Assembly (NCBI GenBank): GCA_016198415.1
Contig: JACQIO010000016.1
Coordinates: 6,084 to 70,083, forward strand
Source of the DNA: Candidatus Berkelbacteria bacterium
GTDB lineage: Bacteria; Patescibacteriota; UBA1384; JACPKC01
DNA: 64,000 bases
Direction: 5' to 3'
Positions 2,009 to 51,900 of this stretch are shown here, one piece after another (position 1 is the first letter of the stretch; each line of letters opens with the position of its first letter). The position numbers were made by a program, and so were the translations under genes. The notes below the pieces were generated by a model. The model was not told where the DNA came from. It was given only the letters and a program-made list of their open reading frames with translations, and made no database searches.

Positions 2009-2014
2009 ACTCTT

Positions 2015-2775
2015 TCACCACCCCACCTACACACCGGAAGTGTAGGTTGGGTGGTGTTATAATGCGGGCATGGCAGTCCGGCACGAATCGATCATTACCG
2101 GCGAGGTCTATCACGTCTTTAATCGTGGCGTTGAGAAGCGAGATCTGTTTATTGACGATGTCGATCGTCAGCACTTTCTCGATGTCCTCAGCTTCTACCT
2201 AGACGAAGTTCAGGCAACCCGCTTCTCATTTCTCACCACAAAGCAGCGACAAAGAATGCTGCAGAAAATGCCCACGCATCCGCGCGTTGAGATCTTGGCC
2301 TACTGCCTGATGGGCAACCACTTCCACCTGATCATCCGCCAGTTGGGCGACGAGGGGATTCGGCGATTTCTCCACCGGGCGCTGAACAGCTACGCTCGAT
2401 ACTTCAACACCCGATACGAGCGAGTCGGTGCGCTCTTCCAGGGTCGATTTCGTGCTGTCCGGGTGACGAGTGATGCCCAGCTTCTTCACCTGATCCGTTA
2501 CCTTCATCTCAACCCATACGTGAGCCATCTTGTGGAGACGCTCGACTCGTACACGTGGAGCTCTCACCCCCTCTATGCTGCCCAACGAGAGACACGACTC
2601 GTCCGCATCACTCAAGGCATGAGTTTCTTTGACAATGACCCAGAGCGATACCGGAAGTTCCTTGAGGATTATCAGGAGTACGCACGTTCGTTGCATCTCC
2701 TCCGGGACATCGCCGAGCAAAGCCGCTGATTTCACACCACCACCCTTTCACTCCGGAAGTGTAGGTGGTGTGGTG
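2015..2775 (+). mobile_element. IS200/IS605-family-like minimal element: Y1 (HUH) transposase gene flanked by subterminal hairpins
   Basis: Left hairpin CACCACCCCACCTACAC-ACCGGAA-GTGTAGGTTGGGTGGTG (2015-2055), right hairpin region with the same CCGGAAGTGTAGGTGGTGTGGTG core (2733-2775), both start with TTTCAC(C). Extended -10 (TGtTATAAT 2054-2062) immediately before ATG 2070 suggests a leaderless transcript. Confidence 0.55.
2070..2729 (+). CDS. IS200-like / REP-associated tyrosine transposase (Y1 HUH transposase, COG1943/RAYT-like)
   Basis: 219 aa. N-terminal YHVFNRG, HUH motif LMGNHFHLII, catalytic-Tyr region SYARYFNTRYERVGALFQGRF typical of Transposase_17/RAYT proteins. Confidence 0.85.
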   Translation: MAVRHESIITGEVYHVFNRGVEKRDLFIDDVDRQHFLDVLSFYLDEVQATRFSFLTTKQRQRMLQKMPTHPRVEILAYCLMGNHFHLIIRQLGDEGIRRFLHRALNSYARYFNTRYERVGALFQGRFRAVRVTSDAQLLHLIRYLHLNPYVSHLVETLDSYTWSSHPLYAAQRETRLVRITQGMSFFDNDPERYRKFLEDYQEYARSLHLLRDIAEQSR

Positions 2776-2791
2776 AGGGGTTAGGGTGGGC

Positions 2792-2820
2792 TTGACAGAT
2801 GCCACATCCTGGTGTATCAT
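2792..2820 (+). promoter_or_regulatory. Near-consensus sigma70 promoter TTGACA-N17-TATCAT
   Basis: TTGACA 2792-2797, 17-nt spacer, TATCAT 2815-2820, directly after the IS200-like right end, pointing into an ORF-free region. Confidence 0.5.
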
Positions 2821-2826
2821 CTCGCT

Positions 2827-3526
2827 GTTCCTGGCGCTTCAATCACATGGTTCCTCTTCGCGCCGGGGACGTTCACAACAAAGATGGAGGCGGGCTGGGA
2901 TGCGCACCCCTAGCCACCACGCCTCCTCGTTCCGGCCCTTGTTGGTCGGACGAAAGCCTGGTGCGCACCCTGGGTCCGGTGAGCGTTTGACGCTCCAAGC
3001 CGTACCCAAGGTTCATGGCCTCGCCCTTGCGCCGGTTCGAACCCGGCTGCCACTCATTTGGTTTGTCGGGCGAGGCAAACCGGAGGCGGTGATCTGACCA
3101 GCGATCCGGGCTGGTTAGGGAGATCAAGATCATCGCTGATGCGGGAGCGTCGTGCCGAGGGCTGGGCCTCGGCACTGTCACTGGATTCCCGGAAGAACTG
3201 GGTCCAGGATGCTCCGGGACGGAGAGAGCTGCGCTGGTGGTTGACTCCCACCTAAGCCAACTCGGCTGCTCTCCTCCTATCCCACCCGTCACCCCCACTC
3301 GCGGGACGCGTGCCAGGCCTTCGGGTCTGGACCCACGAGCGGGGCTTGCAGGCCGCACTGCGTGGCCACCCACGAAGACCTCCACTTCCCCCACCGAAGC
3401 GCGCGATGGGGCCCCGGGATCACTCGGCGGAGGCACTCATGAGGAGTCGGCGGGGTGCGTTGCACCCACCCGGGGCACCACCCCGTCGACCTCCTCCCAC
3501 AAAAAGCGCCGTAGGGCGCACACACC
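2827..3526 (+). ncRNA. Candidate non-coding transcript or decayed gene remnant (no credible ORF on either strand)
   Basis: About 0.9 kb between tnpA and the next gene. Only short Arg/Pro/Gly-rich overlapping ORFs. Consensus promoter upstream, canonical T-arm-like hairpin GCCGGTTCGAACCCGGC at 3031-3047, GC hairpin near the 3' end. Confidence 0.2.
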
Positions 3527-3560
3527 GGGCCGGCTCATCGCGAGCCGGCCCTTCCTCATG
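3527..3560 (+). terminator. Terminator-like GC hairpin GGGCCGGCTC-ATCGC-GAGCCGGCCC followed by TTCCTCAT
   Basis: Perfect 10-bp stem seen directly. Weak U-tract, as usual in a GC-rich genome. Confidence 0.3.
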
Positions 3561-3570
3561 TCATCACCAA

Positions 3571-3599
3571 TTGACAACCGCCGCGCCTTCAGGTATGGT
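3571..3599 (+). promoter_or_regulatory. sigma70 promoter TTGACA-N17-TATGGT
   Basis: TTGACA 3571-3576, TATGGT 3594-3599. SD GAGGAG precedes ATG 3710. Confidence 0.5.
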
Positions 3600-3709
3600 G
3601 ACGCGTTCTTGCACCAGAACAATTCGGACAACGAAACGCTCCTTTTGGGGCGCGTTCTGCGTGCAGACAGATCACACGCGGGCGTGGCCCGCATGAGGAG
3701 AAAGTCAAA

Positions 3710-5278
3710 ATGTTCAAAGTTCTGTTCGTTCAAACCATCGGCCTCGTCATGACCCTCGGCCTCGCTGGGCTGGCGCTCGGGAGCCTCCGGCTCCTCTGGG
3801 CAGCGCACCGGGACAATGGGTCCTACTCGTCCCGAACGCCGTGTTGGCCGGAGCGCCGGACCTGGTGGCTGCGGGGTGCCAGTTGCATCGTGGCTGCCTG
3901 GAGTGCGTACGCACTGGGGAGGATCTTGGCGCCAGACACCTGGCTCTGGTTCTTCCTGGTCACGTACACGACGACCTGGCTGACGCTCTCTACGCACCTC
4001 AGCCGGACGATGTGGCGGACCAACTCCCGTCAGCCGCGGATCCATCGCCTCTCATGGGGTGTGGCGATCTTCGCACTGATGGGTGGCACCATGACCGTCC
4101 TCGCGACCACTTGGTCCCTGTTCATGGTGGCGGCAATCTTTGTTGCCCTGCCACGGATCTGGGAGTGGTGGTCCGAGTGGTTCCAGGATGTGCGGTACCG
4201 CCGGCACCGGCCGGTCGCCGCGCTCGGCATGGGGCTGGCGATCCTCGTCGGCCTGAGCTGGATCACAGTCATGAGCGGGCGCGTTGCCATCGAAGCCCTC
4301 TTGGGGACGAAGGTTATCGTGCGGGCCGGCGGAGTCGTTACGCCGCCGCCACCTCCGCCGCCGGTGGCGCTTCCCAAGTGGATCCTCGGCAAAGGGGTCT
4401 GGATCGTCAACCTTGACCACGCCGAGGGCGGGGACCTCGAGGCCATCGTGGCGAAGGCCAAGAAGTACCACGCCGACCACCTCCTGGTGAAGCTCTTTGA
4501 CTCAGAGTGGGATGAGGGGCCGTGGATCCCGTTTCACGGCGCCGACATCCGCCCGGTGGCCAAGGAGCTCATCGCGCTCGCCCACGCCGAGGGCATCAAG
4601 GTCTACCTCTGGGGGTACGTCTACGGCAAGCGGACCCAGTGGGAGATCGGGCTCGTCCGGGAGTGCCTCATGCTCAACCCCGACGGCTTTGTCTATGACG
4701 CCGAGGGGGAGTGCAAGAAGGAGGGCCGAACCGAGAACCTGGAGGAGATCTGCCGGTCGGTTACGGAATGGCGGGACAAGTACCGGCCGAACGCACTGCT
4801 CGGGTTCTCGTCGTTCGACGGGACGATCATGCACGCCGACGGAGGGTTCCCGTACGCGGTCTTCGACCGCTACTGCGAGGTCTTCATCCCCCAGTGTTAC
4901 TGGAAGGATGATGCCACCGGCACTCCAGCCGATCGTCTCAGCTGGGCGTCGGAGCAGTGGGTCGCCTCGGCGGCCAAGTACCGTGCGCGGGGGGCAGGCA
5001 AGTCGTTCGATCGAATCCTCCCGGCTGGCCACGCCTACGACCCCAGACTCAACAGTAACCTTCGGGAGATCCCGTATGAGGAGGTCGTGGACTTCCTTGA
5101 ACGGGCCGAAGGCTTCTGGGGGGTGTCGCTGTACACCTACGAGTTTATGGGGCCGGAGCAGTGGCAGGGCTTCCGGGACGGGCCCGGGTCGCTCCGGGAG
5201 AAGGCCGAGCGGTACGGCGAGGAGCTGCGCAAGGCGCGGGAGGCTAAGCGTAGCGGCAAGAAGGGAAAGGAGGGCTGA
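3710..5278 (+). CDS. Polytopic membrane protein with poly-Pro linker and C-terminal TIM-barrel glycoside-hydrolase-like domain (GHL/DUF4015-type guess), Lys-rich tail
   Basis: 522 aa. About 6 N-terminal hydrophobic helices, PPPPPPP linker, then WIVNLDHAEGGD...IKVYLWGYVYG...LNPDGFVYDAEGE. Good SD. Domain assignment by similarity only. Confidence 0.8.
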   Translation: MFKVLFVQTIGLVMTLGLAGLALGSLRLLWAAHRDNGSYSSRTPCWPERRTWWLRGASCIVAAWSAYALGRILAPDTWLWFFLVTYTTTWLTLSTHLSRTMWRTNSRQPRIHRLSWGVAIFALMGGTMTVLATTWSLFMVAAIFVALPRIWEWWSEWFQDVRYRRHRPVAALGMGLAILVGLSWITVMSGRVAIEALLGTKVIVRAGGVVTPPPPPPPVALPKWILGKGVWIVNLDHAEGGDLEAIVAKAKKYHADHLLVKLFDSEWDEGPWIPFHGADIRPVAKELIALAHAEGIKVYLWGYVYGKRTQWEIGLVRECLMLNPDGFVYDAEGECKKEGRTENLEEICRSVTEWRDKYRPNALLGFSSFDGTIMHADGGFPYAVFDRYCEVFIPQCYWKDDATGTPADRLSWASEQWVASAAKYRARGAGKSFDRILPAGHAYDPRLNSNLREIPYEEVVDFLERAEGFWGVSLYTYEFMGPEQWQGFRDGPGSLREKAERYGEELRKAREAKRSGKKGKEG

Positions 5279-5282
5279 GCAG

Positions 5283-5326
5283 AGGTCCGTGGGGAGCAAT
5301 CCCCCGGACCTCTTTCCTTTTTGGGC
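5283..5326 (+). terminator. Intrinsic terminator GAGGTCCGTGGGG-agcaat-CCCCCGGACCTC + TTTCCTTTTTGGG
   Basis: 12-bp GC stem followed by T-rich tract immediately after stop of 3710..5278. Confidence 0.65.
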
Positions 5327-5553
5327 TGCTTCTGGTCGTAACGACCTCGGCGCGTCTACAAATGACCAATAATCAAACTCCAATAACCAGACAAGTTCCA
5401 ATATCCAATGTTCAGTTTGGTTATTCGGACCTTCGGTTATTGTCTGATCATTGAGGCTTGGTCATTGGTCATTGCCTCGCGCACCCTGCTCCTATTGAAC
5501 CACCCCTGTTGGCAGCGTCGAATGGGTCTGCGGCCGGGTGAACATCAAGGCAT

Positions 5554-5582
5554 TGACAGGAGGAGAGGTACGTGCTAGACTC
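5554..5582 (+). promoter_or_regulatory. sigma70 promoter TTGACA-N17-TAGACT
   Basis: TTGACAGG 5554-5561 and TAGACT 5577-5582, about 250 nt upstream of ATG 5834 (long leader). Confidence 0.35.
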
Positions 5583-5833
5583 CCGAGTTCGCTGCTGGTA
5601 CAGTGCGTTCAGAGGGACGCACGTCCAGTTGCTTTCCACCAAGTAGAACGTCATTCCACTCTGGTCCGGCTAGGAGCTGGGAGAGTTGTCTGCGAGCCTT
5701 GCTCAACGACTTTGCCCCTCCTTCCCAGCTGTCCCCTGAGGATACTCGAGCTCGCTCCGCTTGCCGGAGAGGGTACGTGGCCTGGCTGGACCAGAGGGAA
5801 TGACACTTAAGGAGGGGATCGTGGGGCACGACT

Positions 5834-8548
5834 ATGACCAACGAAACTCTCCGAAGTGGCACCCAATCTCCTGAAACGAACCGGCCGGACAACGCGCCGG
5901 CTTTTGGCGTTGTGGGTGAGCGACTGGCCGCCCTCGGCGAGCGCATCCGCTCGGGGTTCGCAGAGGGTCGCGAGCAGGCGATGGCCGCCGCCCGCGGGCG
6001 GATTGCGGCTGCTCCCACCCTGGAAGCGGCTGCGGCCGAGGGGCTCAAGGATCGCCTGACGCCAGAACTCAAGGCCGCCCAAGAGCGCGATGGCACTGCC
6101 TGGTACAACCAAGCCCGCGCCTGGCTCAAGCATCCCGAGGTTCGCAAGGCCCGGACTGGTCTCTCCATCGCTGCCACCGGCGCCGGCTTCTTTGGGCTGG
6201 CCACCGCTAACCTGCCGCTCGTGGCCGGTGCGGTGGCGGCTCGCTTTGGCCTGGCCGCCCTCGGTTCCTACAACCTGGCCCAAGAAATCCAACTCAACCG
6301 CGATCTCCATAAGGACACTAGCCGCGAACTCACGGGGCTCGAAAAGCTCGTCGGCGTCTTCACGCGGCGTGGCCAGGGCCTCGATGAGGCAACTGTGGCC
6401 GGGATGAGTCGCGATCAAGCCCAGGCCCGGATTGCCGCGACGGTCGCGACGGCCCGGGCGGCCGATATCACCGATGCCCGTGCCATCAGCCAGCAAGCCG
6501 CCTTTGATCAACTGCTCGTCAAGTCGACGCTCAGTGCCCAGACCGAGAAGCGCTTGGAACAACTTCGCAGCGCAATGGCAGCTCGCCTGATTCGAGCTGA
6601 GCGGGGCTTGGGCAAGCGCGCTGCCCTCGATGAGGCCGAGGTGACTGCCTACGCGGTGACTCATCAAGCGGCGATCGATCAAGCCATCGCCGAGCGCGAG
6701 GCCAAGCGGGGCGAGTGGGAGCAGACGAACGGTCAGACGCTCAGCAAGACGAGCGCGCTTGTTCGCGGTCACGCTCAAGCACGTGCCGACGTTGCCACGG
6801 TCCTGGCCGGTGCTGAGATCCAGCTGCCAGCCGCCCGCACGCAGGCCAAGCACCGAACGATCCTCTCCGGTCTGATTGGTCTGGGGATGGGCGCCCTGTC
6901 TCTCTTCATGGGTGGCGTAAGTAAGCTGGAGTCCGCCAAGGACGCAGCTGAGGCCGCTGCCACTGGCGTGACCCCGGACGTGGCCGGCCCGCCTGATGCC
7001 ACAACTTTGGGAGAGACGCCAGTGCCCCGACCCGGTTTGCCGATCCCAGCGCCTGCAGCGGCGGCGCCGGCACATGAGGCTGGTGGTCTTGGCCGTGAGG
7101 CGCTCCAGAACGCTGGGACGGCCGCGCGCGCCATCGCCAGCGGGCGTGAGCACTTCCATGCCAATCTTGTCGACACGCTCCGGGCCGGCCTGGAGCAGGC
7201 TGACTACCAAGGCACCACCCAGCCAATCCACGCGGCGGTCAATGCCCTGGTCCACAACCACCTGACCGACGGCTTTGATCTGTCCGTGGTCAACACGGAG
7301 AATGGCCAGTCGCTCGCGCAGTACCTCCTCTACCACGCGGACGAGCTGGCTGACCCAGCCAATGAGGCCAAGCTCTACGATCTCCTGTCCCATGACTTCT
7401 CAACCGCTGAGCTGGGTGAGCGGATGGCGCTGGCCGTGACTGGTGAGGTGGACGCGTCCGCGCTCGAATCAACCGTTGGGGCTGCCGCAACTGCCGCTGA
7501 GGGCGCGGCCGGAGCGCAGGAAGTCTTTGTCAACGAGCACGTCCAGGCTGCTCTCGATGCCCTTGAGTCCACAGAGACGCGGGGCGTGGTCACGCCGGAC
7601 CAGGTGGCCCCGCTCAACCGATTGATTCTCAAGAGTGAGGATGTCCGTGAGGCGTTGGCCCTCGAGGGTCCCCACGGTGGTGAGACTAATCAGATTACGA
7701 ACGTAGAGAGACTCCACGCAGGCCAGGCCGCTCCTGCGGTGACACACCTGAGCGACGGTCGGCTCCGACTCATCTACATGTTAGACGGTCGGGATATGTC
7801 TCTTGAGCCGGTGGCCGATCCGCAGAAGCTGACGGTCACCCTCGACTCAGCCGGCCACGTTGTCAAGGCCGAGAGCGAGCTCCTGGAGCACGGGAATTGG
7901 ATGAAGGATCCGGAAACGTATCCAGAGCCGGTTCCAGCAGCGCCGGCTGAGCCCGTGCCCGCACCAGAGGCCGTCAAGCCTGGCAACTTCACGGTTGTTG
8001 AGGATGGTCCAACCCAGTCACCGGTAACTGTGGCCACGTCGCCCAGCTTCACGGTCGTAGAGGATCGGGCGACCCTGCCTGTCGAGTCTGCACCAGCGTC
8101 AGTGACCCCAGTTCCAGCCGAGGCACCCCCGCAAATCGCTGCCCCAGCCGAACCGACCGAGCCAGAGGCACCGACTGCTCCGGTGACGACCGAGGAAGTC
8201 AAGGCGACGCCGATTCCTACCGAGGCGCCACCGGCTGAGGCAGTCGTCGAAGAGACCGAGCAGCCGAACCGCACGGTCCTTGACCCCAACCAACCCTGGC
8301 TGACGCTCCCGCCTGAGGGATCCGAAGAGACAGCTGAGGTGGAACCAGAAGCGGCCAAGCCAGAGGAGTCGACTGAGGACACGCCGAACATTACTGCAAC
8401 ACCCACTGATGTAGCCACGCCAGTTCCCACAGAGGAACCACCGGCCGAAGCGTCGGAACCAGTGGTTCGGGAGTCACCTCTCGCCAAGCCGTCGGATGGT
8501 GAGGTGGCACCCACGCCAACTGGCAAGTACGAGGCGGTTGGTATCTAA
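5834..8548 (+). CDS. Large (904 aa) Ala-rich membrane/surface protein with Pro/Glu/Thr/Val-rich repetitive C-terminal half
   Basis: N-terminal region with hydrophobic segments (LSIAATGAGFFGLATANLPLVAGAVAARFGLAALG). C-terminal PEPVPAAPAEPVPAPE... with internal direct repeat NFTVVEDGPTQSPVTVATSPSFTVVEDRATLPV. SD AAGGAGGGG upstream. The 528-aa antisense ORF is rejected. Confidence 0.75.
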   Translation: MTNETLRSGTQSPETNRPDNAPAFGVVGERLAALGERIRSGFAEGREQAMAAARGRIAAAPTLEAAAAEGLKDRLTPELKAAQERDGTAWYNQARAWLKHPEVRKARTGLSIAATGAGFFGLATANLPLVAGAVAARFGLAALGSYNLAQEIQLNRDLHKDTSRELTGLEKLVGVFTRRGQGLDEATVAGMSRDQAQARIAATVATARAADITDARAISQQAAFDQLLVKSTLSAQTEKRLEQLRSAMAARLIRAERGLGKRAALDEAEVTAYAVTHQAAIDQAIAEREAKRGEWEQTNGQTLSKTSALVRGHAQARADVATVLAGAEIQLPAARTQAKHRTILSGLIGLGMGALSLFMGGVSKLESAKDAAEAAATGVTPDVAGPPDATTLGETPVPRPGLPIPAPAAAAPAHEAGGLGREALQNAGTAARAIASGREHFHANLVDTLRAGLEQADYQGTTQPIHAAVNALVHNHLTDGFDLSVVNTENGQSLAQYLLYHADELADPANEAKLYDLLSHDFSTAELGERMALAVTGEVDASALESTVGAAATAAEGAAGAQEVFVNEHVQAALDALESTETRGVVTPDQVAPLNRLILKSEDVREALALEGPHGGETNQITNVERLHAGQAAPAVTHLSDGRLRLIYMLDGRDMSLEPVADPQKLTVTLDSAGHVVKAESELLEHGNWMKDPETYPEPVPAAPAEPVPAPEAVKPGNFTVVEDGPTQSPVTVATSPSFTVVEDRATLPVESAPASVTPVPAEAPPQIAAPAEPTEPEAPTAPVTTEEVKATPIPTEAPPAEAVVEETEQPNRTVLDPNQPWLTLPPEGSEETAEVEPEAAKPEESTEDTPNITATPTDVATPVPTEEPPAEASEPVVRESPLAKPSDGEVAPTPTGKYEAVGI

Positions 8549-11619: not shown

Positions 11620-12519
11620 ATGCAAAAGATTCTTTCTCTGCTCGGAGTGGCGGGCCTCTTGATGGTAGCAGCTGGACCATCAACTGCTGCTGCCCAAGAT
11701 GCCTTTGCCGACCCGATCTTTGCTGGTTTCAACCTCAACTGGGTCAGCAATGCTCAGTTCCAGGGCCAGGGACAAGGTCAGCAAACGATTGTTCCCATTG
11801 TCAATAACAACGGGACCAACAACGCTGGGTCTGCCTCGGGTGCCGGGAACGTGACCGTTCCGGTCATCCAGGTGACGCCGGCGCCAACTGCCGGGACGCC
11901 TGTTTCAGGCGGTTCTGGCACTGGTACGTGCAATGCCAACGCCAGTTGCGCAACCGTTCCGGTCACGATGGACCCGGCCAGGCCGGCGATCATTGTGAAC
12001 GGTGGTGACGCGAATGCGGCGGCTGCGGCCTCGGCGGCCACAGCCGGCAACGGTGGTGGTGGCGAGAACGGTGACGGCGGTTCGTCCGCTGCGTCGAGCT
12101 CGTCTGCTGCCAACGCTGGTGGCAATGAGAACGGCGCCGGTGGTGCCAATGCGGCTGCGGCTGCATCGGCTGCTTCAACTGGTGGCGGTAAGGGTGGCAA
12201 CGGTGGCGGGAGCGCCGCTGCCTCAAGTGCTGCCAATGCCGGTGGCAAGGACGGGGCGAGTGCGGCGGCTGCGGCCGCGGCTGGCCCCAATGCCAACGCG
12301 GAAGCCAGGGCCGGTGACGGCAAGGCGGAAGCTAAGGCTGAGTCCAAGAGCGAACCAACCAAGGTTGCTCTGGCCAAGGGCGCGCTCCCTAAGGAGCTCC
12401 CCAAGGCTGGTGCCGAGGCTGGTGCGCTGGCCGTTGGTCTGACCACGCTGACAGGCGCTGGTTCAGCCCTCCTGGCTCGCAAGCGTAAGCTTGACCTGGC
12501 TGACCTCATCGTCGGCTAA
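11620..12519 (+). CDS. Secreted Ala/Gly/Asn-rich surface protein with N-terminal QGQGQG-TIVPIVNN module and C-terminal LPxAG-type sortase-like sorting signal
   Basis: Signal peptide MQKILSLLGVAGLLMVAAGPSTAAA. NAQFQGQGQGQQTIVPIVNNNGTNNAGSASGAGNVTVPVIQ. C-terminus LPKAG + hydrophobic stretch + RKRK tail. Confidence 0.75.
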   Translation: MQKILSLLGVAGLLMVAAGPSTAAAQDAFADPIFAGFNLNWVSNAQFQGQGQGQQTIVPIVNNNGTNNAGSASGAGNVTVPVIQVTPAPTAGTPVSGGSGTGTCNANASCATVPVTMDPARPAIIVNGGDANAAAAASAATAGNGGGGENGDGGSSAASSSSAANAGGNENGAGGANAAAAASAASTGGGKGGNGGGSAAASSAANAGGKDGASAAAAAAAGPNANAEARAGDGKAEAKAESKSEPTKVALAKGALPKELPKAGAEAGALAVGLTTLTGAGSALLARKRKLDLADLIVG

Positions 12520-12556
12520 GGACGCTCTGGTTGGCTGGTACCAGCTGACTGGAGGC

Positions 12557-12590
12557 AAAGAGACCCCGCCCGGGGTCTCTTTGTGTTGGT
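12557..12590 (+). terminator. Intrinsic terminator AAAGAGACCCCG-CC-CGGGGTCTCTTT + GTGTTGG
   Basis: Perfect palindromic GC stem flanked by A and T tracts after stop of 11620..12519. Could act bidirectionally. Confidence 0.55.
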
Positions 12591-12745
12591 ATCACCTTAG
12601 TCCTCCCCTTGCCAACCCCTCCTCCTGACACGCTCATTTCAACACGTCACTTCCTCAAAGACACTCTTCGTTCCTGACGGCCGAAGTTTCTTTGGGAGCG
12701 TGATGCGTCGAAATGGGGATGGTATCCGCCTTTGGCGGATGGATT

Positions 12746-12800
12746 GGTATCTGTGTGATCTGCGAGTCGCCAGGGAGGCGACCTATGTATCTGTGGTGTG
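12746..12800 (-). repeat. Box-hairpin-box intergenic repeat, copy A (minus orientation)
   Basis: RC reads CTCACACCACAGATACATAGG - GTCGCC..GGCGAC hairpin - CAGATCACACAGATACC. Homologous to copies at 19516-19575 and 43484-43543. Confidence 0.5.
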
Positions 12801-12812
12801 AGCTACCCCTGC

Positions 12813-12841
12813 TTGACAGAGCACCGAGAACGCGGTACCCT
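12813..12841 (+). promoter_or_regulatory. Promoter candidate CTTGACAGAG-N17-TACCCT (weak -10)
   Basis: Shares the CTTGACAG -35 context with promoters at 2792 and 13597. Points into the ORF-poor region. Confidence 0.25.
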
Positions 12842-13064
12842 CCGTCCAGCTGAACGCAGCTTTACCTTTGTGAGAGCAACCCACCGGACCTGATGTTGTC
12901 GGCACGGCCGGTAACCAGTGAAGGGGACGTCAGGTCCCGGTGGGTTCACACGAATTGACGGCTGGCTGTCGCTGGGCTCGGGCCGTGAGGCCGTAGGCCC
13001 CGGGGCTTACACCGAGCACGCCGTGGTCTCAGGAGCCACGGATGGCGCCGAGCTAGCCGTCTCA

Positions 13065-13511: not shown

Positions 13512-13586
13512 GGGTGAACGTGAATGGTGAAAGGAGAAGGCAGCGTGACGCTTTGCGCTGTACCTTTCACTTTTCACGTTTCACCC
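13512..13586. repeat. GTGAAAG/C heptad-repeat hairpin element, copy 1
   Basis: Forward arm GGGTGAACGTGAATGGTGAAAGGAGAAGG, 20-nt palindromic spacer, reverse arm TACCTTTCACTTTTCACGTTTCACCC. Confidence 0.6.
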
Positions 13587-13596
13587 AAGGTACCCC

Positions 13597-13626
13597 TTGA
13601 CAGGTGGTCGGCATCTGCAGTATCTT
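13597..13626 (+). promoter_or_regulatory. sigma70 promoter TTGACA-N18-TATCTT (homologous to the promoter at 2792)
   Basis: CTTGACAGGTG...ATCTGCAGTATCTT aligns with CTTGACAGATG...ATCCTGGTGTATCAT at 2791-2820. Confidence 0.4.
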
Positions 13627-14243: not shown

Positions 14244-15248
14244 ATGTCCACCCTTGATGATCGGAAATCGAAACTCTACGAGCTCCTCAAGCTTGAGGAG
14301 AAAGACGCCCGGATTCGTGCAATCGAGGCGCTGATGGCCGCGCCCAATTTCTGGGCCGATCAAACCCAGGCCACGCAGCTCAGCACTGAACTGGCCCGGC
14401 TCAAACAGACTATTGCCGAGTGGGAAATAGCCGAGACCGATGATCAGGTTCGGGCGCTGGAACTGAAGTCGCTCCTCTCTGGTAAGTACGACGCCAGCAA
14501 CGCCATCGTCAGCTTCCACGCCGGCGCCGGGGGGACCGAGGCCATGGACTGGGCCGGAATGCTCCGGCGGATGATTGAGCGTTGGGCCGAAGGTCGGGGT
14601 TTGCCGGTGACGGAAATCGAGCAGTCGCTCGGTGAGGAGGCCGGCCTCAAGTCCGCCACCCTCAAGATTGCCGGCGAGCACGCCTACGGCTATCTCAAAG
14701 GGGAGGCCGGCGTTCACCGCCTGGTCCGGATCTCGCCGTTCGACGCCGATAAAGCCCGCCATACTTCTTTTGCGCTCATTGAGGTGGTGCCCGAGCTCGC
14801 AGATCTGGGCGATGTGGTGATCGACGAGAAAGACCTCCGGACCGATCTCTTCCGCTCCGGCGGCAAGGGTGGTCAGAACGTCAACAAAGTGGAAACGGCC
14901 GTTCGGATCACGCACCTCCCCACCGGCCTGGTTGCCACCAGCCAGAACGAGCGGTCTCAGGCTCAGAATCGAGCGCTCGCAATGGGCGTCCTGGTTGCCA
15001 AGCTCCAGGCCTTGGCGCACGAGCAGCGGCTCGAGCAGATTGGCGAGCTCAAGGGCGAGCACCGGAAGGTGGAGTGGGGGAGTCAGATTCGCTCCTACGT
15101 CCTCCAGCCCTACCAACTGGTCAAGGATCTCAGGACCGGGCATGAGGAGAGTGATGCCGAGGCTGTCCTTGAGGGCAGGAAGCTGCAGGGGTTTATGGAT
15201 GCCTACCTTGCGTGGCAGGCCACACAAGGGGTGAAACGTGAAAGGTAA
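14244..15248 (+). CDS. prfB: Peptide chain release factor 2
   Basis: SPF motif (RISPFDADKARHTSF) and GGQ motif (GGKGGQNVNKVETAVRITH). Single uninterrupted ORF with no CTT-TGA-C frameshift site. Last 6 codons plus stop lie inside the GTGAAAG repeat. Confidence 0.9.
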   Translation: MSTLDDRKSKLYELLKLEEKDARIRAIEALMAAPNFWADQTQATQLSTELARLKQTIAEWEIAETDDQVRALELKSLLSGKYDASNAIVSFHAGAGGTEAMDWAGMLRRMIERWAEGRGLPVTEIEQSLGEEAGLKSATLKIAGEHAYGYLKGEAGVHRLVRISPFDADKARHTSFALIEVVPELADLGDVVIDEKDLRTDLFRSGGKGGQNVNKVETAVRITHLPTGLVATSQNERSQAQNRALAMGVLVAKLQALAHEQRLEQIGELKGEHRKVEWGSQIRSYVLQPYQLVKDLRTGHEESDAEAVLEGRKLQGFMDAYLAWQATQGVKRER

Positions 15249-15303
15249 AAGGTGAAAGGTGCACGGAGACAGCCCGTTTCACGATTCACCTTTCACGTTT
15301 CAC
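15228..15303. repeat. GTGAAAG/C heptad-repeat hairpin element, copy 2 (overlaps prfB 3' end)
   Basis: GGGGTGAAACGTGAAAGGTAAAAGGTGAAAGGTG - cacggagacagcccg - TTTCACGATTCACCTTTCACGTTTCAC. Confidence 0.6.
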
Positions 15304-15371: not shown

Positions 15372-15674
15372 ATGCCCGGCATGTTCGATCAAATGAAGGC
15401 GATTGCCAAGGCCAAGAAAGTCCAGAACGACCTGAAAAAGACCGAGATTGAGGCGAGCGGGGGCGATGGCGCCGTGACGGTGGTCTTTACCGGCGAACTC
15501 AAGCTCCAGTCCATCACGATTGCCGAGCGGATGCTCGCACCGGAGCGCAAGCAGGAGCTCGAGCGGCTCATCAAAGACACCATGACCCAGGCGATGCAGC
15601 AAGCCCAGGCCTTGGCGGCCGAGAAGACGCGCGAGGTCATGAAGCAAATGGGCGTCAACCTGCCGGGACTCTAG
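15372..15674 (+). CDS. ybaB: Nucleoid-associated protein YbaB/EbfC
   Basis: 100 aa, MFDQMKAIAKAKKVQNDLKK...LPGL. Typical YbaB length and coiled-coil composition. Confidence 0.85.
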   Translation: MPGMFDQMKAIAKAKKVQNDLKKTEIEASGGDGAVTVVFTGELKLQSITIAERMLAPERKQELERLIKDTMTQAMQQAQALAAEKTREVMKQMGVNLPGL

Positions 15675-15677
15675 GTT

Positions 15678-16104
15678 GGTGAAAGGTGAAACGTGAAAGG
15701 TGAAACGACCACGATCAACCTCTCCCGGCCTCATTACCGTCTCGATGCTTGGAAGGAATCACTCAAGCTGGCCAAACTGATCTACGAGCTCAGTCAACGC
15801 TTCCCCGACTCTGAACGGTATGGGTTAGTCAGTCAGATGCGTCGGGCGGCAGTCTCGGTATTGAGTAACATCGCGGAGGGCGCAGCGCGGAATAGCAGAA
15901 AGGAATTTGCCCAGTTTCTCTCAATTGCTCAGGGGTCACTCAGTGAGCTTGAAGCCCAGGTGATCATTTCACAGGAGCTTGGCTATATTGCAGATTCAGC
16001 AGAGGTGCTTGAGCTCCTCGATCGGGTATCTCGTCTTGTCGGTGGATTGCAGAGGAGTTTGCGATGACCCTGGACCTTTCACGTTTCACATTTCACCTTT
16101 CACC
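15678..16104 (+). mobile_element. GTGAAAG-repeat stem whose loop carries a four-helix-bundle protein gene (rRNA-IVS-like cargo element)
   Basis: Forward arm GGTGAAAGGTGAAACGTGAAAGGTGAAACG (15678-15707) and reverse arm CCTTTCACGTTTCACATTTCACCTTTCACC (16075-16104) flank the ORF. Same arms as the cargo-less hairpin copies. Confidence 0.5.
15693..16067 (+). CDS. Four-helix-bundle protein (23S rRNA intervening-sequence protein family, TIGR02436-like)
   Basis: LAKLIYELSQRFPDSERYGLVSQMRRAAVSVLSNIAEGAARNSRKEFAQFLSIAQGSLSELEAQ matches the family consensus. GTG start lies inside the repeat arm. Confidence 0.8.
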   Translation: MKGETTTINLSRPHYRLDAWKESLKLAKLIYELSQRFPDSERYGLVSQMRRAAVSVLSNIAEGAARNSRKEFAQFLSIAQGSLSELEAQVIISQELGYIADSAEVLELLDRVSRLVGGLQRSLR

Positions 16105-16107
16105 ACT

Positions 16108-16689
16108 ATGAAACTCATCGTCGGTCTTGGAAATCCAGGCAAGGAGTACGCCCAGACGCGTCACAACGTTGGGTGGATGGTGCTCGATCGACTGGCGGAG
16201 CAGCTGGGGACCCATCCGTGGTCGCACTCGGAGAAGTTTACGGCTGAGTTGGCTGAGATAGGGGAGGGGATTCACAGAACAATCCTCCTCAAGCCCACCA
16301 CCTTCATGAACAACTCTGGGCGGGCCGTGGAACGACTCCGCCACTTCTCCAAGCTCGAGCCAGCGGACATTGTGGTTGTCCACGACGAGCTGGCGCTTCC
16401 CCTGGGGTCAATGCGCGTGCGGCTGGGCGGAACCTCGGCCGGCCACAACGGGGTAGGCTCAATCATTCACCACCTTGGAACCGAGGCGTTCTGGCGGGTT
16501 CGGATTGGGATCGAGCAGCCAGGCGCAACTCGACCGTACGGGGAGCAGTCGGACTTTGTCCTGGGACGGTTCAGCGCCGAGGAGCGAGTCATCATTGCGC
16601 CCGTCATTGACCGAGCGGTGGCACTCCTGGTAGACTTCAGCTCTTCAGGAACCCTCAGCGACGAGACCATCACCATTCCAGCAGCGTAA
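16108..16689 (+). CDS. pth: Peptidyl-tRNA hydrolase
   Basis: MKLIVGLGNPGKEYAQTRHNVGW... catalytic His motif. Start chosen at the MKLIVGLGNPG ATG rather than the longer ORF. Confidence 0.9.
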   Translation: MKLIVGLGNPGKEYAQTRHNVGWMVLDRLAEQLGTHPWSHSEKFTAELAEIGEGIHRTILLKPTTFMNNSGRAVERLRHFSKLEPADIVVVHDELALPLGSMRVRLGGTSAGHNGVGSIIHHLGTEAFWRVRIGIEQPGATRPYGEQSDFVLGRFSAEERVIIAPVIDRAVALLVDFSSSGTLSDETITIPAA

Positions 16690-16746
16690 CCACTGGTGGG
16701 AGATCGCCAGCGTCGTGGCGGTCGTTCGGACCACGAAAGGAGCCTG

Positions 16747-17685
16747 ATGGCTAAGCCAGCAGACAAGGCCGAGAAGCCGACTCGGCGGAGCCCAAAGAAG
16801 CGATCGGCGCCGGTGGCTGAGGAGCGTCAGAGCGAGGTGAGCTCAGACCCGGCGCTCGAGGCGGAGGTGCTGGACGCGGAGTCGGGCAGCCAGCTTGTGG
16901 ATGAGACGCAGGTGGCGGCCGAAGGGTACGAGCACGGGACGGACACTGATGCCGTGGTGCCGGCCGAGGTGGAGGCGATCCACACGGACACGCCCGTGGT
17001 CCACGAGGCTTCCCGGGAGAAGAAGCGAGCGAGCGAGGCGCCGCCAACTCGGCGGACCGCCACCAAGCCCAAGCGACGGAGCGTTCGCTACCAGCAAGCG
17101 ATCGCCACGCTCAATCTCACCAAGAGCTACCCACTCAGGGCGGCTTTGGAGCAAGCCGTGGCCGGCTCCTACACCAAGTTTGACGGCACGGTGGAGCTGC
17201 ATGTCCGTCTTGCCCCCAAGAAGCGGGGTGAGCCGGTGGCGCTCCGGGGCCTAGTCCAGCTCCCCCACGGGTCCGGCAAGCCGGTCAAGGCGGCCATTCT
17301 CACCGAGGAACTGATCGCAACCATTGCCAAGGAGAAGAGCACGGACTGGGATATCCTCATTGCCCCCAAGTCGCTCATGCCCAAGGTGGCGACGATCGCC
17401 AAGATCCTCGGACCGCAAGGGAAGATGCCGAGCCCCAAAGCCGGCACGGTTTCTAACACGCCCGAGGACGTCCTGGCCTCGATCCAGTCCGGCCGGATTG
17501 AGTACCGGACGGATGCCGGCGGCATTGCCCACCTGCCGATTGGGAAGACCTCCTGGCCAGCGTCCAAGCTCGAGGAGAATGCCCGGGCGATCCTAGGGGC
17601 GTTGCCCCTCGTCCAGTTGACCTCGGTCACCGTGGCTGCCACAATGGGGCCAGGCGTGCGGGTTGATCGGACCAGTCTCAGCTAG
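16747..17685 (+). CDS. rplA: 50S ribosomal protein L1 with a ~115-aa Lys/Ala/Glu-rich N-terminal extension
   Basis: C-terminal 200 aa align with L1 (VELHVRLAPKKRGEPVALRGLVQLPHGSGK...ILGPQGKMPSPKAGTV). SD AAAGGAG before ATG 16747. Confidence 0.85.
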   Translation: MAKPADKAEKPTRRSPKKRSAPVAEERQSEVSSDPALEAEVLDAESGSQLVDETQVAAEGYEHGTDTDAVVPAEVEAIHTDTPVVHEASREKKRASEAPPTRRTATKPKRRSVRYQQAIATLNLTKSYPLRAALEQAVAGSYTKFDGTVELHVRLAPKKRGEPVALRGLVQLPHGSGKPVKAAILTEELIATIAKEKSTDWDILIAPKSLMPKVATIAKILGPQGKMPSPKAGTVSNTPEDVLASIQSGRIEYRTDAGGIAHLPIGKTSWPASKLEENARAILGALPLVQLTSVTVAATMGPGVRVDRTSLS

Positions 17686-19641: not shown

Positions 19642-19717
19642 CGGCGCGTAGCGCAGCCAGGGAGCGCACTACGTTGGGACGTGGAGGACGTGGGTTCAAA
19701 TCCCATCGCGCCGGCCA
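19642..19717 (+). tRNA. tRNA-Pro (anticodon GGG), CCA encoded. Hand-fold gives a 6-nt anticodon loop
   Basis: Acceptor CGGCGCG/CGCGCCG, D-arm GCGC-AGCCAGGGA-GCGC, anticodon arm CTACG-TTGGGA-CGTGG, T-arm GTGGG-TTCAAAT-CCCAT, discriminator G, CCA. Confidence 0.75.
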
Positions 19718-21780: not shown

Positions 21781-24261
21781 TTGACGGGTTTTGCATTTCT
21801 CCTCCTGATACTGGGACTGGCTGGGGCTGGTGGCTGGCTCTGGCTTGATCGTTATCGAGAACGATTGGGGAGTGAGCGCGCCCGAGACCTCGTCCTCTTG
21901 AAGGTCCTAGTCCCCAAGGAGTCTGGTGAGTCGCAAGACGAGACCGGAAAGCGAGACTTCCGGGAAACGATGTCGGTGGCGGAGCAGTTCCTGGCCAGCT
22001 TTGCCTCGCTCCACAAAGAGGGGCTCCTGGAGTGGATTCCCGGTCAGCCCACCATTAGCTTGGAGTTCGTGGCCAAGAACGGGCTCCTGACGTTCTACAT
22101 TGCTGTCCCCAAGGCGTTCCGAGAGCTGGCCGAGCGGCAGCTTCACAGCTACTACCCCTACGCCCAGATCGAGCCGAGCGAAGCGTTCCGCATCTTTTCC
22201 GAGACGGTCTATCCGGAGGGCATGTACGTCAAAACCAAGAAGACGTACGTCCTCCCTATCAAAACCTACAAGGAGCTCGAGAGCGATCCGCTGAACGCCA
22301 TCACCAACGCCTTCAGCAAGCTCCCCGATGGAGTCAATGCCGGGTTCCAGCTCCTCCTCCGGCCCACCTCGGGAGCCTGGCGGGACAAGACCGTCCACGC
22401 CGCCAAATCGGTGGCGCAAGGCAAGAATCTGACCAAATCGCACTGGGCGCTTCAGGCGCTCAATGCGGTTGTGTCCTCGCTTCGCAGTGGCGGAGCCGCG
22501 GCTGAGGAGAAAGAGAAGGAGAAGGAGACCGTTCGCCTGACGCCCATCCAAGAAGAAGTGATGAAGGGAATCCAGGAGAAGGGGAGTAAGGTCGGTTTCT
22601 CGGCCCAGCTGCGGGTGATTGTCCTGTCTCCCACCTCCACCAACGAGGCCAAGATCGCCCTGGACAACATCGCCTCGTCGCTCGGCCAGTACACCGCGCC
22701 CGAGATGAACTACCTGAAGAAAGTTGGGGCGACGGACGCCAAGCAGTTTGCCACCGATTTCATCCTCCGCCGGTTCCGAGAGCGCGCCCCGTCGTCCATC
22801 CTCAACACCGAGGAGCTGGCTTCCCTCTACCACGTGCCCAACGAGTTCATTGAGACGCCCAACATTGAGTGGCTGGCCGCTCGGACCATGGCGCCCCCAT
22901 CTAACTTACCGCCGGAGGACCCCAACGCCGTCATCCTCGGCAAGAGCGTCTACCGAGGTGAGGAGCGGCCGGTCAGGATCAAGCAGGACGATCGGCGCCG
23001 TCACCTCTACTCGATTGGAAAAACTGGCGTGGGCAAGACGACGCTCTTCATCCACCAGATCGAACAGGACATCAAGGCGGGCCGAGGGGTGGCGTACCTG
23101 GATCCCAATGGGGACGCCATCGAGTCGATTCTGACGATCATTCCCAAGGAGCGGGCCGAGGACGTCGTCCTCTTTGATCCGGCCGACCTGGAGCGGCCGA
23201 TGGGACTCAACGTCCTTGAGTGGAAGCGGCTGGAAGACCGCGACTTCCTGGTGGCCGAGTGGCTGGAGATCTTCTACAAGCTCTTTGATCCCAATCGAAC
23301 CGGCATGGTCGGTCCGCAGTTTGAGCACTGGGGGCGGAACGCCTCGCTCTCCGTCATGGCCCGGCCCGGTGGGGGGACGCTCATCGATATCCCACGGCTC
23401 TTCACGGACGATGCGTTCCGGGACGACACGCTCCGGTACGTGACCGATCCGGTCGTCAAGGCATTCTGGGAGCAACAGATGGCCAAGACCGCTGACTTCC
23501 ATAAGTCGGAGATGTACAACTACTTCATCAGTAAGTTCGGTCGTTTCATGACGAACGATCTCATTCGCAACATCATTGGCCAGACCAAGAGCGCCTTCGA
23601 CATTCGCGAGTTGATGGATGGCCATAAGATCTTCCTGGTCAACTTGAGTAAGGGGAAGATTGGTGAGACCAACTCTCACCTGCTGGGTATGATCTTAGTG
23701 GCCAAGATGCAGGTGGCGGCCTTTCAGCGCGCCGACACGCCCGAGGCAGATCGGAAAGACTTCTACCTCTACGTGGATGAGTTCCAGAACTTCACCACCG
23801 ACACGTTCAAGACGATTCTCTCTGAGGCACGGAAGTACCGCCTGAACCTCAACATCACCAACCAGTACATTGCCCAGTTGCCAGAAGAGATTCGAGACGC
23901 TGTCATCGGCAACGCCGGGACCCTCATCTCCATGCGCGTGGGCGCGGCTGACGCTGAGTTTCTCGAGAAGGAGTTCCCCAACGTGACCGAGCACGACCTC
24001 GTCAACCTGCCCTTTGCGAGCTCCTACACCAAGCTCCTGATTGACGGGACACCCACCAAGCCGTTCTCGATGATGACCATCAAGACGGCCACTCCGCCGA
24101 ATGCGGAACTGGGAGCGGCCATCCGTGAGCTCTCGCGCCTCAAGTATGGGAAGGAGAAGCGGCAGGTTGAGCAGGAGATGGAACAGCGCTACCAAGCCAA
24201 GAATCCCTTTGCACCAGACAATCTTCACATTCCGGACGTGCCGCCGGGACGGGAAGGGTAG
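21781..24261 (+). CDS. Membrane-anchored P-loop ATPase, type IV coupling protein (VirD4/TraG/TrwB)-like, paralog 1
   Basis: TTG start, one N-terminal TM helix. Walker A SIGKTGVGKTTL, VAYLDPNGD (as TrwB VIVDPNGD), FDPADLERPMGLNVLE, Walker B DFYLYVDEFQNF, NQYIAQLPEE. Confidence 0.8.
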   Translation: MTGFAFLLLILGLAGAGGWLWLDRYRERLGSERARDLVLLKVLVPKESGESQDETGKRDFRETMSVAEQFLASFASLHKEGLLEWIPGQPTISLEFVAKNGLLTFYIAVPKAFRELAERQLHSYYPYAQIEPSEAFRIFSETVYPEGMYVKTKKTYVLPIKTYKELESDPLNAITNAFSKLPDGVNAGFQLLLRPTSGAWRDKTVHAAKSVAQGKNLTKSHWALQALNAVVSSLRSGGAAAEEKEKEKETVRLTPIQEEVMKGIQEKGSKVGFSAQLRVIVLSPTSTNEAKIALDNIASSLGQYTAPEMNYLKKVGATDAKQFATDFILRRFRERAPSSILNTEELASLYHVPNEFIETPNIEWLAARTMAPPSNLPPEDPNAVILGKSVYRGEERPVRIKQDDRRRHLYSIGKTGVGKTTLFIHQIEQDIKAGRGVAYLDPNGDAIESILTIIPKERAEDVVLFDPADLERPMGLNVLEWKRLEDRDFLVAEWLEIFYKLFDPNRTGMVGPQFEHWGRNASLSVMARPGGGTLIDIPRLFTDDAFRDDTLRYVTDPVVKAFWEQQMAKTADFHKSEMYNYFISKFGRFMTNDLIRNIIGQTKSAFDIRELMDGHKIFLVNLSKGKIGETNSHLLGMILVAKMQVAAFQRADTPEADRKDFYLYVDEFQNFTTDTFKTILSEARKYRLNLNITNQYIAQLPEEIRDAVIGNAGTLISMRVGAADAEFLEKEFPNVTEHDLVNLPFASSYTKLLIDGTPTKPFSMMTIKTATPPNAELGAAIRELSRLKYGKEKRQVEQEMEQRYQAKNPFAPDNLHIPDVPPGREG

Positions 24262-27200: not shown

Positions 27201-27363
27201 AGCGCCACGATCGGTGTCGGCTGTACCAGCGCGACCAATCATCTCAGCAGAGGACATCCAGGCCCTGAGAGAAGCGGCCGGGGCTGAGCCGGAGGCGGAC
27301 CTCGGCACGCTCACTCCCGGTGAAGAGATCTCGCTTCACGATGACCGGGACGTCACACCCTAG
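24268..27363 (+). CDS. Membrane-anchored P-loop ATPase, T4CP-like, paralog 2 with ~230-aa Pro/Arg/Gly/Ser-rich C-terminal tail
   Basis: Same motif set as paralog 1 (TIGKTGTGKSTL, VAVVDPHGQ, DFYLYVDEFQNF, NQYIAQMPE). SD GGGAGG before ATG 24268. Confidence 0.8.
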   Translation: MLTIILLLILAVAGWFGWRAFQQWRLARRAEEYAGWLGSQRSIILHVLVPKNNEKTPLAAEQFFAAIHGVFREGADFQEQISFELVSHDTFIHFYLHVPAHLKEFVEGQLYAQYPQIEIQEVEDYLTPLVPSQAMLGAELVQTKDPVYPILTFQNFTVDPLSGITAVLGNLGAGQQLYVQIVIKPVAESWQERGVKFVAAKRLGVPLKKPSGFVQLIGVASRVVVSILQTIFLPSGGGGEGAAEAAPAKEPDKRPELSAPEEAALKGIESKVTKLGYAVRIRLLAVASDPYTARSRIEAISGAFKQFNTNNLNGFRSAIVDQVEPFLHAMKAREFAGDGMILNTEELASLYHLPSVSVETPNMMWAGSKKGEPPANLPVAGRDDESDITFLGMTDFRNNRHKFGIKSKDRGLHMYTIGKTGTGKSTLLLNMVIDDIQKGKGVAVVDPHGQLIQDVLERLPPHRTNDVIYFNPADRDHPIGFNLFESVDPDLRNVVASGILSIFKKLWADSWGPRLEYILRNAILALMYYPDTTLLGINRLLTDPAYERRVIRKVTDPVVRDFFENEYDMYDPKFRREAIAPIQNKVGQFLSSSTIRNILGQPQSSFNMREVMDEGKILLLDLSIGRIGEDNASLLGSMLITKIQLAAMSRADIPEAERRDFYLYVDEFQNFATESFAVILSEARKYHLNLSLTNQYIAQMPEVVAKAIFGNVGTIISFRVGPSDAAGLAKEFEPVFESQDLINLDNYHIYVKMAIDGVTRPAFSSKTLPPMNVQPSRENYEKVVRVSRERYASPRVFVEQKIQDWADDVQVKQAQEWRRKIEEREQGSGGTPGTPPSPAGASQPRPEPRREPEYRNRNDFVKFVDDTKPTPSPAPRSVAPRPPAAPSGQGGRPSSNRDADRSRRSRGGRNRRGPAGSGGQGSGQAPSTGSRPSGPPRTRGPEQGSRPAPAALSPSQPQPAQPPKQEGSAEPIRPNPPPAPRSVSAVPARPIISAEDIQALREAAGAEPEADLGTLTPGEEISLHDDRDVTP

Positions 27364-49089: not shown

Positions 49090-49143
49090 ACGTCTCCTTT
49101 GCTCCGTTCGATCCTGCTCCAGTATTCGGAGGCGGTCAAGGGC

Positions 49144-49200
49144 GGTGAAAGGTGAAACGTGAATCGTGAAAGGACAGACCTTTCGCGTTTCACCTGTCTG
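49144..49200. repeat. GTGAAAG/C heptad-repeat hairpin element, copy 4 (between trxA and nrdJ)
   Basis: GGTGAAAGGTGAAACGTGAATCGTGAAAGG - acagac - CTTTCGCGTTTCACC. Confidence 0.6.
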
Positions 49201-51890: not shown

Positions 51891-51900
51891 GACCCTCCTC

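Follow-up and report, generated by a model that had tools for sequence, protein, structure and literature searches.

What fills the largest gene-free stretch of a densely coded Candidatus Berkelbacteria contig? The window analysed here, i.e. the whole 64-kb stretch (64,000 nucleotides, nt) of contig JACQIO010000016.1, has its largest non-coding gap at 2730-3709 (~980 nt, from a simple tiling of the longest open reading frames, ORFs). A previous interpretation made from the letters alone, hereafter the sequence-only reading, had described 2786-3700 as an ORF-free region driven by a consensus promoter, and had proposed a novel non-coding RNA (ncRNA), a scar left by a tRNA 3' fragment, or a decayed tnpB-type gene. 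We find that the gap contains a candidate transcript, here called X, which may be an orphan, independently transcribed and highly structured ncRNA of ~730 nt on the + strand, bounded by a consensus promoter and a GC hairpin. We hold this reading tentatively, at somewhat under an even chance. The extent first proposed is kept in part, with the candidate transcript running from ~2827 to 3555 and positions 3556-3709 now assigned to the next gene. The elements that delimit X are:

2827-3555, + strand: candidate ~730-nt non-coding transcript X, with an excess of fold stability and without coding signal or Rfam family
2792-2820, + strand: sigma-70-type promoter TTGACA-N17-TATCAT, an 11/12 match, with a predicted start near 2827
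3527-3551, + strand: 10-bp GC hairpin where X probably ends or is terminated, with arms GGGCCGGCTC and GAGCCGGCCC that are 100% complementary (pairing probability 1.00)
3571-3599, + strand: promoter of the next gene, TTGACA-17-TATGGT, which precedes a 522-aa membrane-protein gene

The promoter at 2792-2820 lies where the sequence-only reading had placed it. Only six sites on both strands of the 64 kb match at least 10 of 12 positions, five of them intergenic, and this promoter shares the top score among them. As strong sites are rare and five of six fall between genes, the sigma-70 consensus is informative in this Berkelbacteria genome and can be used predictively. The ncRNA reading is also supported by the neighbouring 522-aa gene, before which the same promoter type is kept in a relative (contig L081).

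Does the gap encode a protein? The ORFs in X are only overlapping Arg/Pro/Gly-rich frames, and GC content by codon position is flat over 2800-3450, compared with a spread of 0.3-0.55 in the flanking genes. With codon log-odds learned from 24 long ORFs of the window, real genes score 0.32 ± 0.20 bits per codon; the six frames of X are mostly below zero, with a maximum of 0.18 over ~100 nt on the minus strand. Searches of Pfam and NCBIfam returned no match, either for the ORFs of X or for its six complete frames with stops masked. The earlier claim that no frame here gives a credible protein is thus upheld.

The same holds for protein remnants. TnpB/IscB domains (RuvC, OrfB_Zn_ribbon) were found neither in six-frame Pfam searches at E <= 5 nor in scans of the ORFs, and tblastn of frame pieces against all relatives' loci collected gave only noise. 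The concatenated six-frame translation had no match in a search of 5.8 billion protein clusters; this negative is weak, as the search scores only the 8000 candidates that share most words. A 187-aa minus-strand ORF, compared by HMMER with 1.84 billion representatives, yielded two matches; both were rejected as artefacts, i.e. sums of ~20 weak cadherin-like tandem-repeat matches of 25 bits each. As the protein and codon tests are all negative, with no remnant in six-frame Pfam/NCBIfam, word or HMMER searches and no codon periodicity, the decayed tnpB-type gene is not supported.

A small protein, or several, could also be encoded within X, the main candidate being a 65-aa ORF at 2900-3097 that sits inside a listed 103-aa ORF and has a Shine-Dalgarno-like GGAGG (2886-2890) 9 nt before its ATG at 2900. 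However, this GGAGG is buried in a predicted hairpin (pairing probability 0.98), and the codon score in this frame (-0.16 to 0.01 bits per codon) does not exceed the 5th percentile of real genes. Its third codon position is not the GC-richest, and no homologue was found by the word search of 5.8 billion clusters or by six-frame Pfam. We regard a coding role as very improbable.

Is X instead structured as an RNA? The + strand of 2826-3560 folds to a minimum free energy of -381.4 kcal/mol. In 60 dinucleotide shuffles the value is -327 ± 8, so that the + strand lies 54 kcal/mol lower (z -6.9). By comparison, the - strand reaches z -2.9. For background, 26 positions of 735 nt were folded on both strands (mean z -1.8, SD 1.7, minimum -5.8), and X is the extreme of this sampled set, though not by a wide margin. 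The excess of the + strand over the - strand is seen in all three subdomains, and its direction matches that of the promoter. The predicted elements of the fold are:

2827-2953, + strand: 5' hairpin set, in which a stem of 11 bp (2827-2837/2860-2870) is followed by a hairpin of 14 bp (2886-2926) and by one more at 2927-2953 (probabilities 0.84-1.00)
2956-3318, + strand: central multi-branch domain, closed by the 11-bp helix GCCUGGUGCGC (2956-2966)/GCGUGCCAGGC (3308-3318)
3018-3076, + strand: predicted three-way junction (probabilities 0.87-0.98), in which a helix of 9 bp (3018-3026/3068-3076) encloses a T-arm-like hairpin (3031-3047) and a second, small one (3049-3062)
3319-3519, + strand: 3' hairpin series at 3319-3377, 3379-3433, 3441-3496 (17-bp stem) and 3506-3519 (probabilities 0.83-1.00)

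Specifically, the z-scores are -3.95 (+) vs -1.14 (-) for the 5' hairpin subdomain, -5.26 (+) vs -3.77 (-) for the central domain, and -4.58 (+) vs -1.98 (-) for the 3' subdomain (3319-3560). The helix predicted to close the central domain spans 363 nt, with a probability of 0.99 in the partition function of this single sequence, and many helices of X have pairing probabilities above 0.95. All of these values come from single-sequence thermodynamics. Read on the - strand, 3519-3506 resembles a terminator with a T5 tail.

Where would the transcript end? The 10-bp GC hairpin is present as the sequence-only reading described it. Its tail, TTCCTCATGT, is T-poor and falls below the requirement of our simple terminator scan (at least 5 T in 8 bases), and it is because of this weak T-run that the scan did not call it. 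The poor U-tail is what would be expected if X were a very long leader, with transcription from 2792-2820 passing the weak hairpin into the 522-aa gene and thus providing that gene with a second, regulated promoter. X and the gene are adjacent and on the same strand, and long structured leaders are used in these genomes, e.g. the 150-nt leader at 5650-5805 described below. Nevertheless, the 522-aa gene has its own promoter, present at 3571-3599 as the sequence-only reading had indicated, and its own 5' untranslated region (UTR). Both are kept in L081, the only homologous locus, which shares them without sharing X and in which the DNA further upstream is unrelated to X. We consider a long leader quite improbable.

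Within the predicted three-way junction, X has a hairpin that recalls part of a tRNA:

3031-3047, + strand: T-arm-like hairpin GCCGG-TTCGAAC-CCGGC, with a 5-bp stem and the loop UUCGAAC, followed by TGCCACTC

This hairpin and the bases that follow it are as the sequence-only reading gave them, and it has the 5-bp stem and UUCRANY loop of a canonical T-arm. Over both strands, about 0.3 such hairpins would be expected in 64 kb; the window has six, three of which belong to real tRNAs. One additional T-arm-like hairpin within a 0.9-kb region is therefore suggestive, not decisive.

Is it part of a tRNA? The 21-mer GCCGGTTCGAACCCGGCTGCC (3031-3051) occurs unchanged in tRNA-Gly(UCC) genes on two viral contigs, where it spans the T-arm and the first four bases of the acceptor strand; these tRNA genes are foreign, and the resident tRNA-Gly lies outside the window. 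X thus shares with the 3' half of tRNA-Gly(UCC) a 5-bp T-stem, the loop UUCGAAC and 21 identical nt. Unlike a tRNA, it has no D-arm, anticodon arm or acceptor partner, and the acceptor 3' strand and CCA region diverge: beyond TGCC, ACTCATT in the window stands against CGCTCCA in the tRNAs (acceptor end TGCCACTCATT vs TGCCCGCTCCA). A 20-mer that includes the next base matched two JGI metagenome contigs, in unrelated DNA without a tRNA call, so such matches also arise by chance. The sole 7/7 acceptor partner for TGCCACT is GGTGGTG at 2764, which is G-U rich, 267 nt upstream and located before the promoter. Within the transcript, no usable partner and no 7-bp acceptor stem were found, in line with the earlier failure to fold a full tRNA. 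ARAGORN predicts neither a tRNA nor a transfer-messenger RNA (tmRNA) in the region, its only calls being three tRNAs at 19.6 kb. For the 116 nt around the T-arm (2960-3075), the best match in the Rfam tRNA clan is tRNA-Sec (E 6.3), whose 11.8 bits fall short of the gathering score of 47.

The segment 3031-~3058 could still be a relic of a tRNA-Gly 3' end, i.e. an attachment-site (att)-type duplication or a pseudogene fragment from an integrating element, with the rest of X being filler or element remnant. The identity of the 21-mer favours this reading, as does the position of the region inside an insertion (see below). On the other hand, the identity ends within the acceptor strand, and att duplications usually retain the tRNA 3' end. 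The low score of the tRNA models, the negative ARAGORN result, the lack of a convincing 5' acceptor partner inside the transcript and the chance matches of the 20-mer also argue against it. Lastly, no integrase or recombinase was found in the inserted block, whose only genes are the RAYT-like gene and the 522-aa gene, or in the next ten genes. The att scar suggested by the sequence-only reading thus has a weak case and appears improbable, and it is not exclusive of the other readings.

Does X belong to a described RNA family? The small genomes of the candidate phyla radiation (CPR)/Patescibacteria are poorly represented in RNA family libraries. At gathering score, the matches of Rfam 15 in the whole window are limited to the three tRNAs at 19.6 kb, with none in X; at E <= 10 with lax filters, 2600-3900 yields only noise of the microRNA (miRNA) and small nucleolar RNA type. 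The covariance-model scan called for by the sequence-only reading thus matches X to no Rfam family, tmRNA, RNase P RNA and HEARO included. X resembles tmRNA, including its two-piece and permuted forms, in having a T-arm inside a much longer structured RNA. By contrast with tmRNA, its TGCCACT strand lacks U70 and cannot make G3:U70, and no CCA is found at the right distance. As neither ARAGORN nor Rfam at E <= 10 supports it, we discard tmRNA. RNase P RNA is discarded likewise, with no Rfam match at gathering score or E <= 10; by eye, there is only a loose resemblance to CR-I and CR-V, 80 nt apart and incompatible with the T-arm.

Other large RNAs were also considered. Omega RNA/HEARO was rejected on the lack of an Rfam match and of a TnpB/IscB frame, and X begins past the right-end palindrome (2735-2775) of the neighbouring mobile element. 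GOLLD, ROOL, OLE and raiA gave no covariance-model match at gathering score or E <= 10. X is similar to these large ncRNAs (OLE, GOLLD, ROOL, HEARO/omega, raiA) in its length of several hundred nt, its promoter boundary, its lack of coding, its many long helices and its multi-branch core. Such RNAs often occur near mobile elements or tRNA-like sequences, and their classes were all defined by conservation. X differs from them in lacking TnpB/IscB or another partner gene, and in being a single sequence without covariation. A literature search on ncRNAs of CPR bacteria and Berkelbacteria found nothing relevant. X is a single-sequence candidate and belongs to no known family.

Repeats were considered as well. 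X adjoins a RAYT-like gene and is GC-rich and hairpin-rich, like RAYT-associated repetitive extragenic palindromes (REPs) and bacterial interspersed mosaic elements (BIMEs). The idea of a REP/BIME cluster was rejected, with the flanking palindrome found only at 2030 and 2749 (the cassette ends) and as one weak match at 48716. X lies outside the terminal palindromes of the cassette and contains no copies of them. A window-wide comparison found no internal or dispersed repeats in X, which also dismisses a tandem array of the CRISPR or TIGR type, and nothing significant was found when X was searched for copies elsewhere in the window or for trans-complementarity to the rest of it.

How did X come to be here? 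Its surroundings differ from those of related genomes and include the following elements:

2009-5536, no strand assigned: lineage-specific inserted block, in which the RAYT cassette is followed by X, the 522-aa gene (promoter and terminator included) and an AT-rich palindrome
2016-2775, + strand: RAYT/IS200-like cassette, with a 219-aa Y1 transposase-like gene (2070-2729) between 41-nt palindromes at 2016-2056 and 2735-2775
3710-5278, + strand: 522-aa membrane-protein gene, served by a promoter and a terminator of its own; the protein has no Pfam or NCBIfam domains
5650-5805, + strand: conserved structured leader of ~150 nt, with a promoter at 5553-5581; found directly after cysS in seven distinct relatives

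We compared nine distinct cysS loci of relatives (11 with two duplicates), whose CysRS proteins are 57-66% identical to that of the window; three are named Candidatus Berkelbacteria and the rest are Logan, JGI or NCBI contigs. The window CysRS (563-2005) is identical to a Berkelbacteria entry, and the closest relative CysRS is 66% identical. The window protein carries a lineage-variable insertion (1140-1215, within cysS), and the orthologues of relatives are 443-552 aa long. The longer contigs of relatives keep the upstream order IleRS-FtsW-L21-SecE-NusG-L11-DprA-TopA-RecR-55aa-CysRS. In seven distinct relatives (L084 = L085, L086, L087 = L088, L089, L090 and L096), a TTGACA promoter and the ~150-nt leader come after cysS. 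Next is either a 939-1166-aa protein without Pfam domains (L086, L087/L088, L090, L096) or smaller Pfam-less genes (L084/L085, L089). The counterpart in the window is the promoter at 5553-5581, the leader at 5650-5805 and a 904-aa gene. As the leader directly follows cysS in relatives and lies at 5553-5805 with its promoter here, 2009-5536 is an insertion relative to them. The 2792 promoter is ruled out as the ancestral post-cysS promoter, because only the 5553-5581 region aligns with those of relatives past the hexamers. Synteny with relatives picks up again at pth and rplA (15979-17685).

The sequence-only reading was correct about a neighbouring IS200-like element, which is a RAYT-like Y1 transposase cassette. 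Its 219-aa protein matches Pfam Y1_Tnp (E 7e-7) and NCBIfam REP_Tyr_transpos (E 5e-12, below the family cut-off). We found no target-site duplications or terminal repeats bounding 2009-5536. At its right edge, 5361-5473 is an AT-rich imperfect palindrome with 34-nt arms that are 79% complementary, vs a background of 62% GC, and Rfam returns only miRNA-model noise for it. The 522-aa protein is 100% identical to NCBI HY375_01695. It has a single homologue among 5.8 billion clusters (L081, 54% identity) and no match in viral contigs or the PDB. The conserved 5' UTR of its gene (3600-3709, +; 370-483 in L081) includes a hairpin, CGCGGGC-NNNN-GCCCGC, just before the Shine-Dalgarno sequence, and has a weak RAGATH-10 match (21.5 bits, E 0.32). 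A comparable element of hairpin plus Shine-Dalgarno sequence is found upstream of a 105-aa gene in L084.

Is X itself found elsewhere? The comparison with orthologous loci proposed by the sequence-only reading bears out that the block 2009-5536 is lineage-specific, with X absent from all nine distinct cysS loci of relatives. A search of 1.05 Mb of relatives' loci using nhmmer --max yielded no match, nor did blastn against phage and plasmid collections. In three pattern scans of viral contigs, the T-arm 21-mer matched tRNA-Gly genes only and two other 22-24-mers matched nothing, and one 20-mer scan of JGI metagenomes found no homologue of X, only the two chance matches mentioned above. No homologue means no covariation for X. 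The lineage is very sparsely sampled, as illustrated by the one homologue of the 522-aa protein and by the 66% identity of the nearest CysRS. An orphan is thus to be expected, and the absence of X homologues says little either way.

Among the options raised by the sequence-only reading, the novel ncRNA is the best supported, given the promoter, the lack of coding signal, the strand-asymmetric fold and the lack of an Rfam family; it is unproven because no homologue, and hence no covariation, is available. Several observations weigh against it. X lies in a lineage-specific insertion beside a mobile-element gene, where non-functional DNA is plausible, and no homologue was found in any collection searched, leaving no covariation and no evidence of selection. 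The 3527-3551 hairpin has no good U-tract, the GC content is 67%, and other intergenic gaps also fold strongly, e.g. 5279-5833 (z -6.3) and 12510-13061 (z -5.9).

The main rival to an ncRNA draws on several of these points. X could be a non-functional remnant of the rearrangement that brought in the RAYT cassette and the 522-aa gene, such as a gene decayed beyond recognition or the cargo of a mobile element, and its promoter-like site and hairpins would then be fortuitous or vestigial. This is consistent with the proximity of the Y1 transposase-like gene, the lack of an X homologue in the collections searched, the strongly negative z-scores of other gaps, the hypervariability of the cysS to pth/L1 zone among relatives, and the absence of the block 2009-5536 from its syntenic place in every one of the seven distinct relatives with the cysS-leader junction. 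However, CPR genomes are compact and this gap is the longest in the window, and X shows no trace of codon periodicity or protein similarity. A decayed gene also predicts neither an 11/12 promoter nor the + over - asymmetry in three subdomains. We view a remnant as possible, though rather unlikely.

If X is indeed an ncRNA, RNA polymerase would start ~7 nt downstream of the 2792-2820 promoter, and the transcript would fold into the 5' hairpin set and then the 363-nt multi-branch domain, with its T-loop-type hairpin in the three-way junction. A row of long 3' hairpins would come next, and the transcript would end at the GC hairpin at 3527-3551. T-loop hairpins in three-way junctions are modules of the kind that make tertiary contacts or are recognised by tRNA-processing enzymes. 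The T-loop hairpin of X may be a module for tertiary contacts or for recognition by a protein or RNase, or may be derived from a tRNA-Gly 3' end.

A bolder proposal is that X founds a new class of large, ornate ncRNAs in a sparsely sampled Berkelbacteria lineage, with a 363-nt multi-branch core, a T-loop module and its own strong promoter, which may have arrived together with the adjacent membrane-protein gene. We consider this unlikely. If the ncRNA reading is true, X would be one of few large structured ncRNAs proposed for CPR bacteria, and would demonstrate that RNAs of this kind can be lineage-specific cargo. Homologues of X with covariation, or a discrete transcript, would make it a new large ncRNA class in these bacteria.

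The post-cysS leader used above to define the insertion provides a useful comparison. It is similar to X in being a structured non-coding transcript from the same genome, with the same promoter type and in the same variable zone, but it differs in being conserved and supported by covariation. Its copies in relatives are located as follows:

11525-11669 in L084
11737-11878 in L086
11469-11608 in L087
1821-1976 in L089
3512-3653 in L090
9984-10123 in L096

The leader has an invariant core, CUAGGAGCUG.GGAGAGUUGUC ... UUGCCCCUCCUUCCCAGCUGCCCC, which includes an anti-Shine-Dalgarno-like CCUCCU. For six sequences (the window plus five relatives), RNAalifold predicts 44 pairs, 15 of which show compensatory double changes, and a covariance model of the leader scores every copy at 119-145 bits. 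Rfam has no match for it. In four relatives and in the window, a giant Pfam-less protein gene follows, and we propose the leader as a candidate new cis-regulatory motif. This by-product of the analysis may be more immediately useful than X. The notion that X is a duplicated copy of the leader was dismissed, as the leader covariance model finds nothing in X.

The zone from cysS to pth/rplA (5834-8548 and the genes up to 15734) is hypervariable and filled by proteins without a Pfam or NCBIfam family. Among them, the 904-aa protein has Pro/Thr/Glu/Ala-rich repeats and no tblastn match (E <= 1e-3) in L090-L092. A second long non-coding gap (12510-13061), located between two minus-strand genes, is predicted to fold very stably on both strands (z -5.9 and -5.6), has a TTGACA at 12813 (+) and shows no Rfam match at gathering score. 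A further orphan promoter-like site, TTGACA-18-TATCTT (13597-13626, +; 10/12), is intergenic between minus-strand genes, and the + strand downstream of it has no gene for 2.3 kb.

Clusters of the heptamer GTGAAAG/GTGAAAC occur near or overlapping gene ends at 13517-13584, 15222-15303, 15670-15709 with 16074-16103, 49136-49200 and 51898-51969. In four of these (13517-13584, 15222-15303, 49136-49200 and 51898-51969), the heptamer run directly faces its complement CTTTCAC, so that long hairpins are possible, and the runs at 15670-15709 and 16074-16103 are ~370 nt apart. These clusters may represent a genome-specific terminator or repeat family. For the first of the three clustered tRNAs (19642-19717), ARAGORN gives tRNA-??? 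and an anticodon of two bases, '(gg)'. It scores 52 bits with the Rfam tRNA model, its anticodon loop being shortened, and is perhaps a pseudo-tRNA or a tRNA of unusual type. Lastly, the large adjacent genes at 21781-24261 (826 aa) and 24268-27363 (1031 aa) have DNA segments in common, with 72-90% identity and an offset of 2487 nt (repeat families D3, D8, D9 and D10), and are therefore tandem paralogues.

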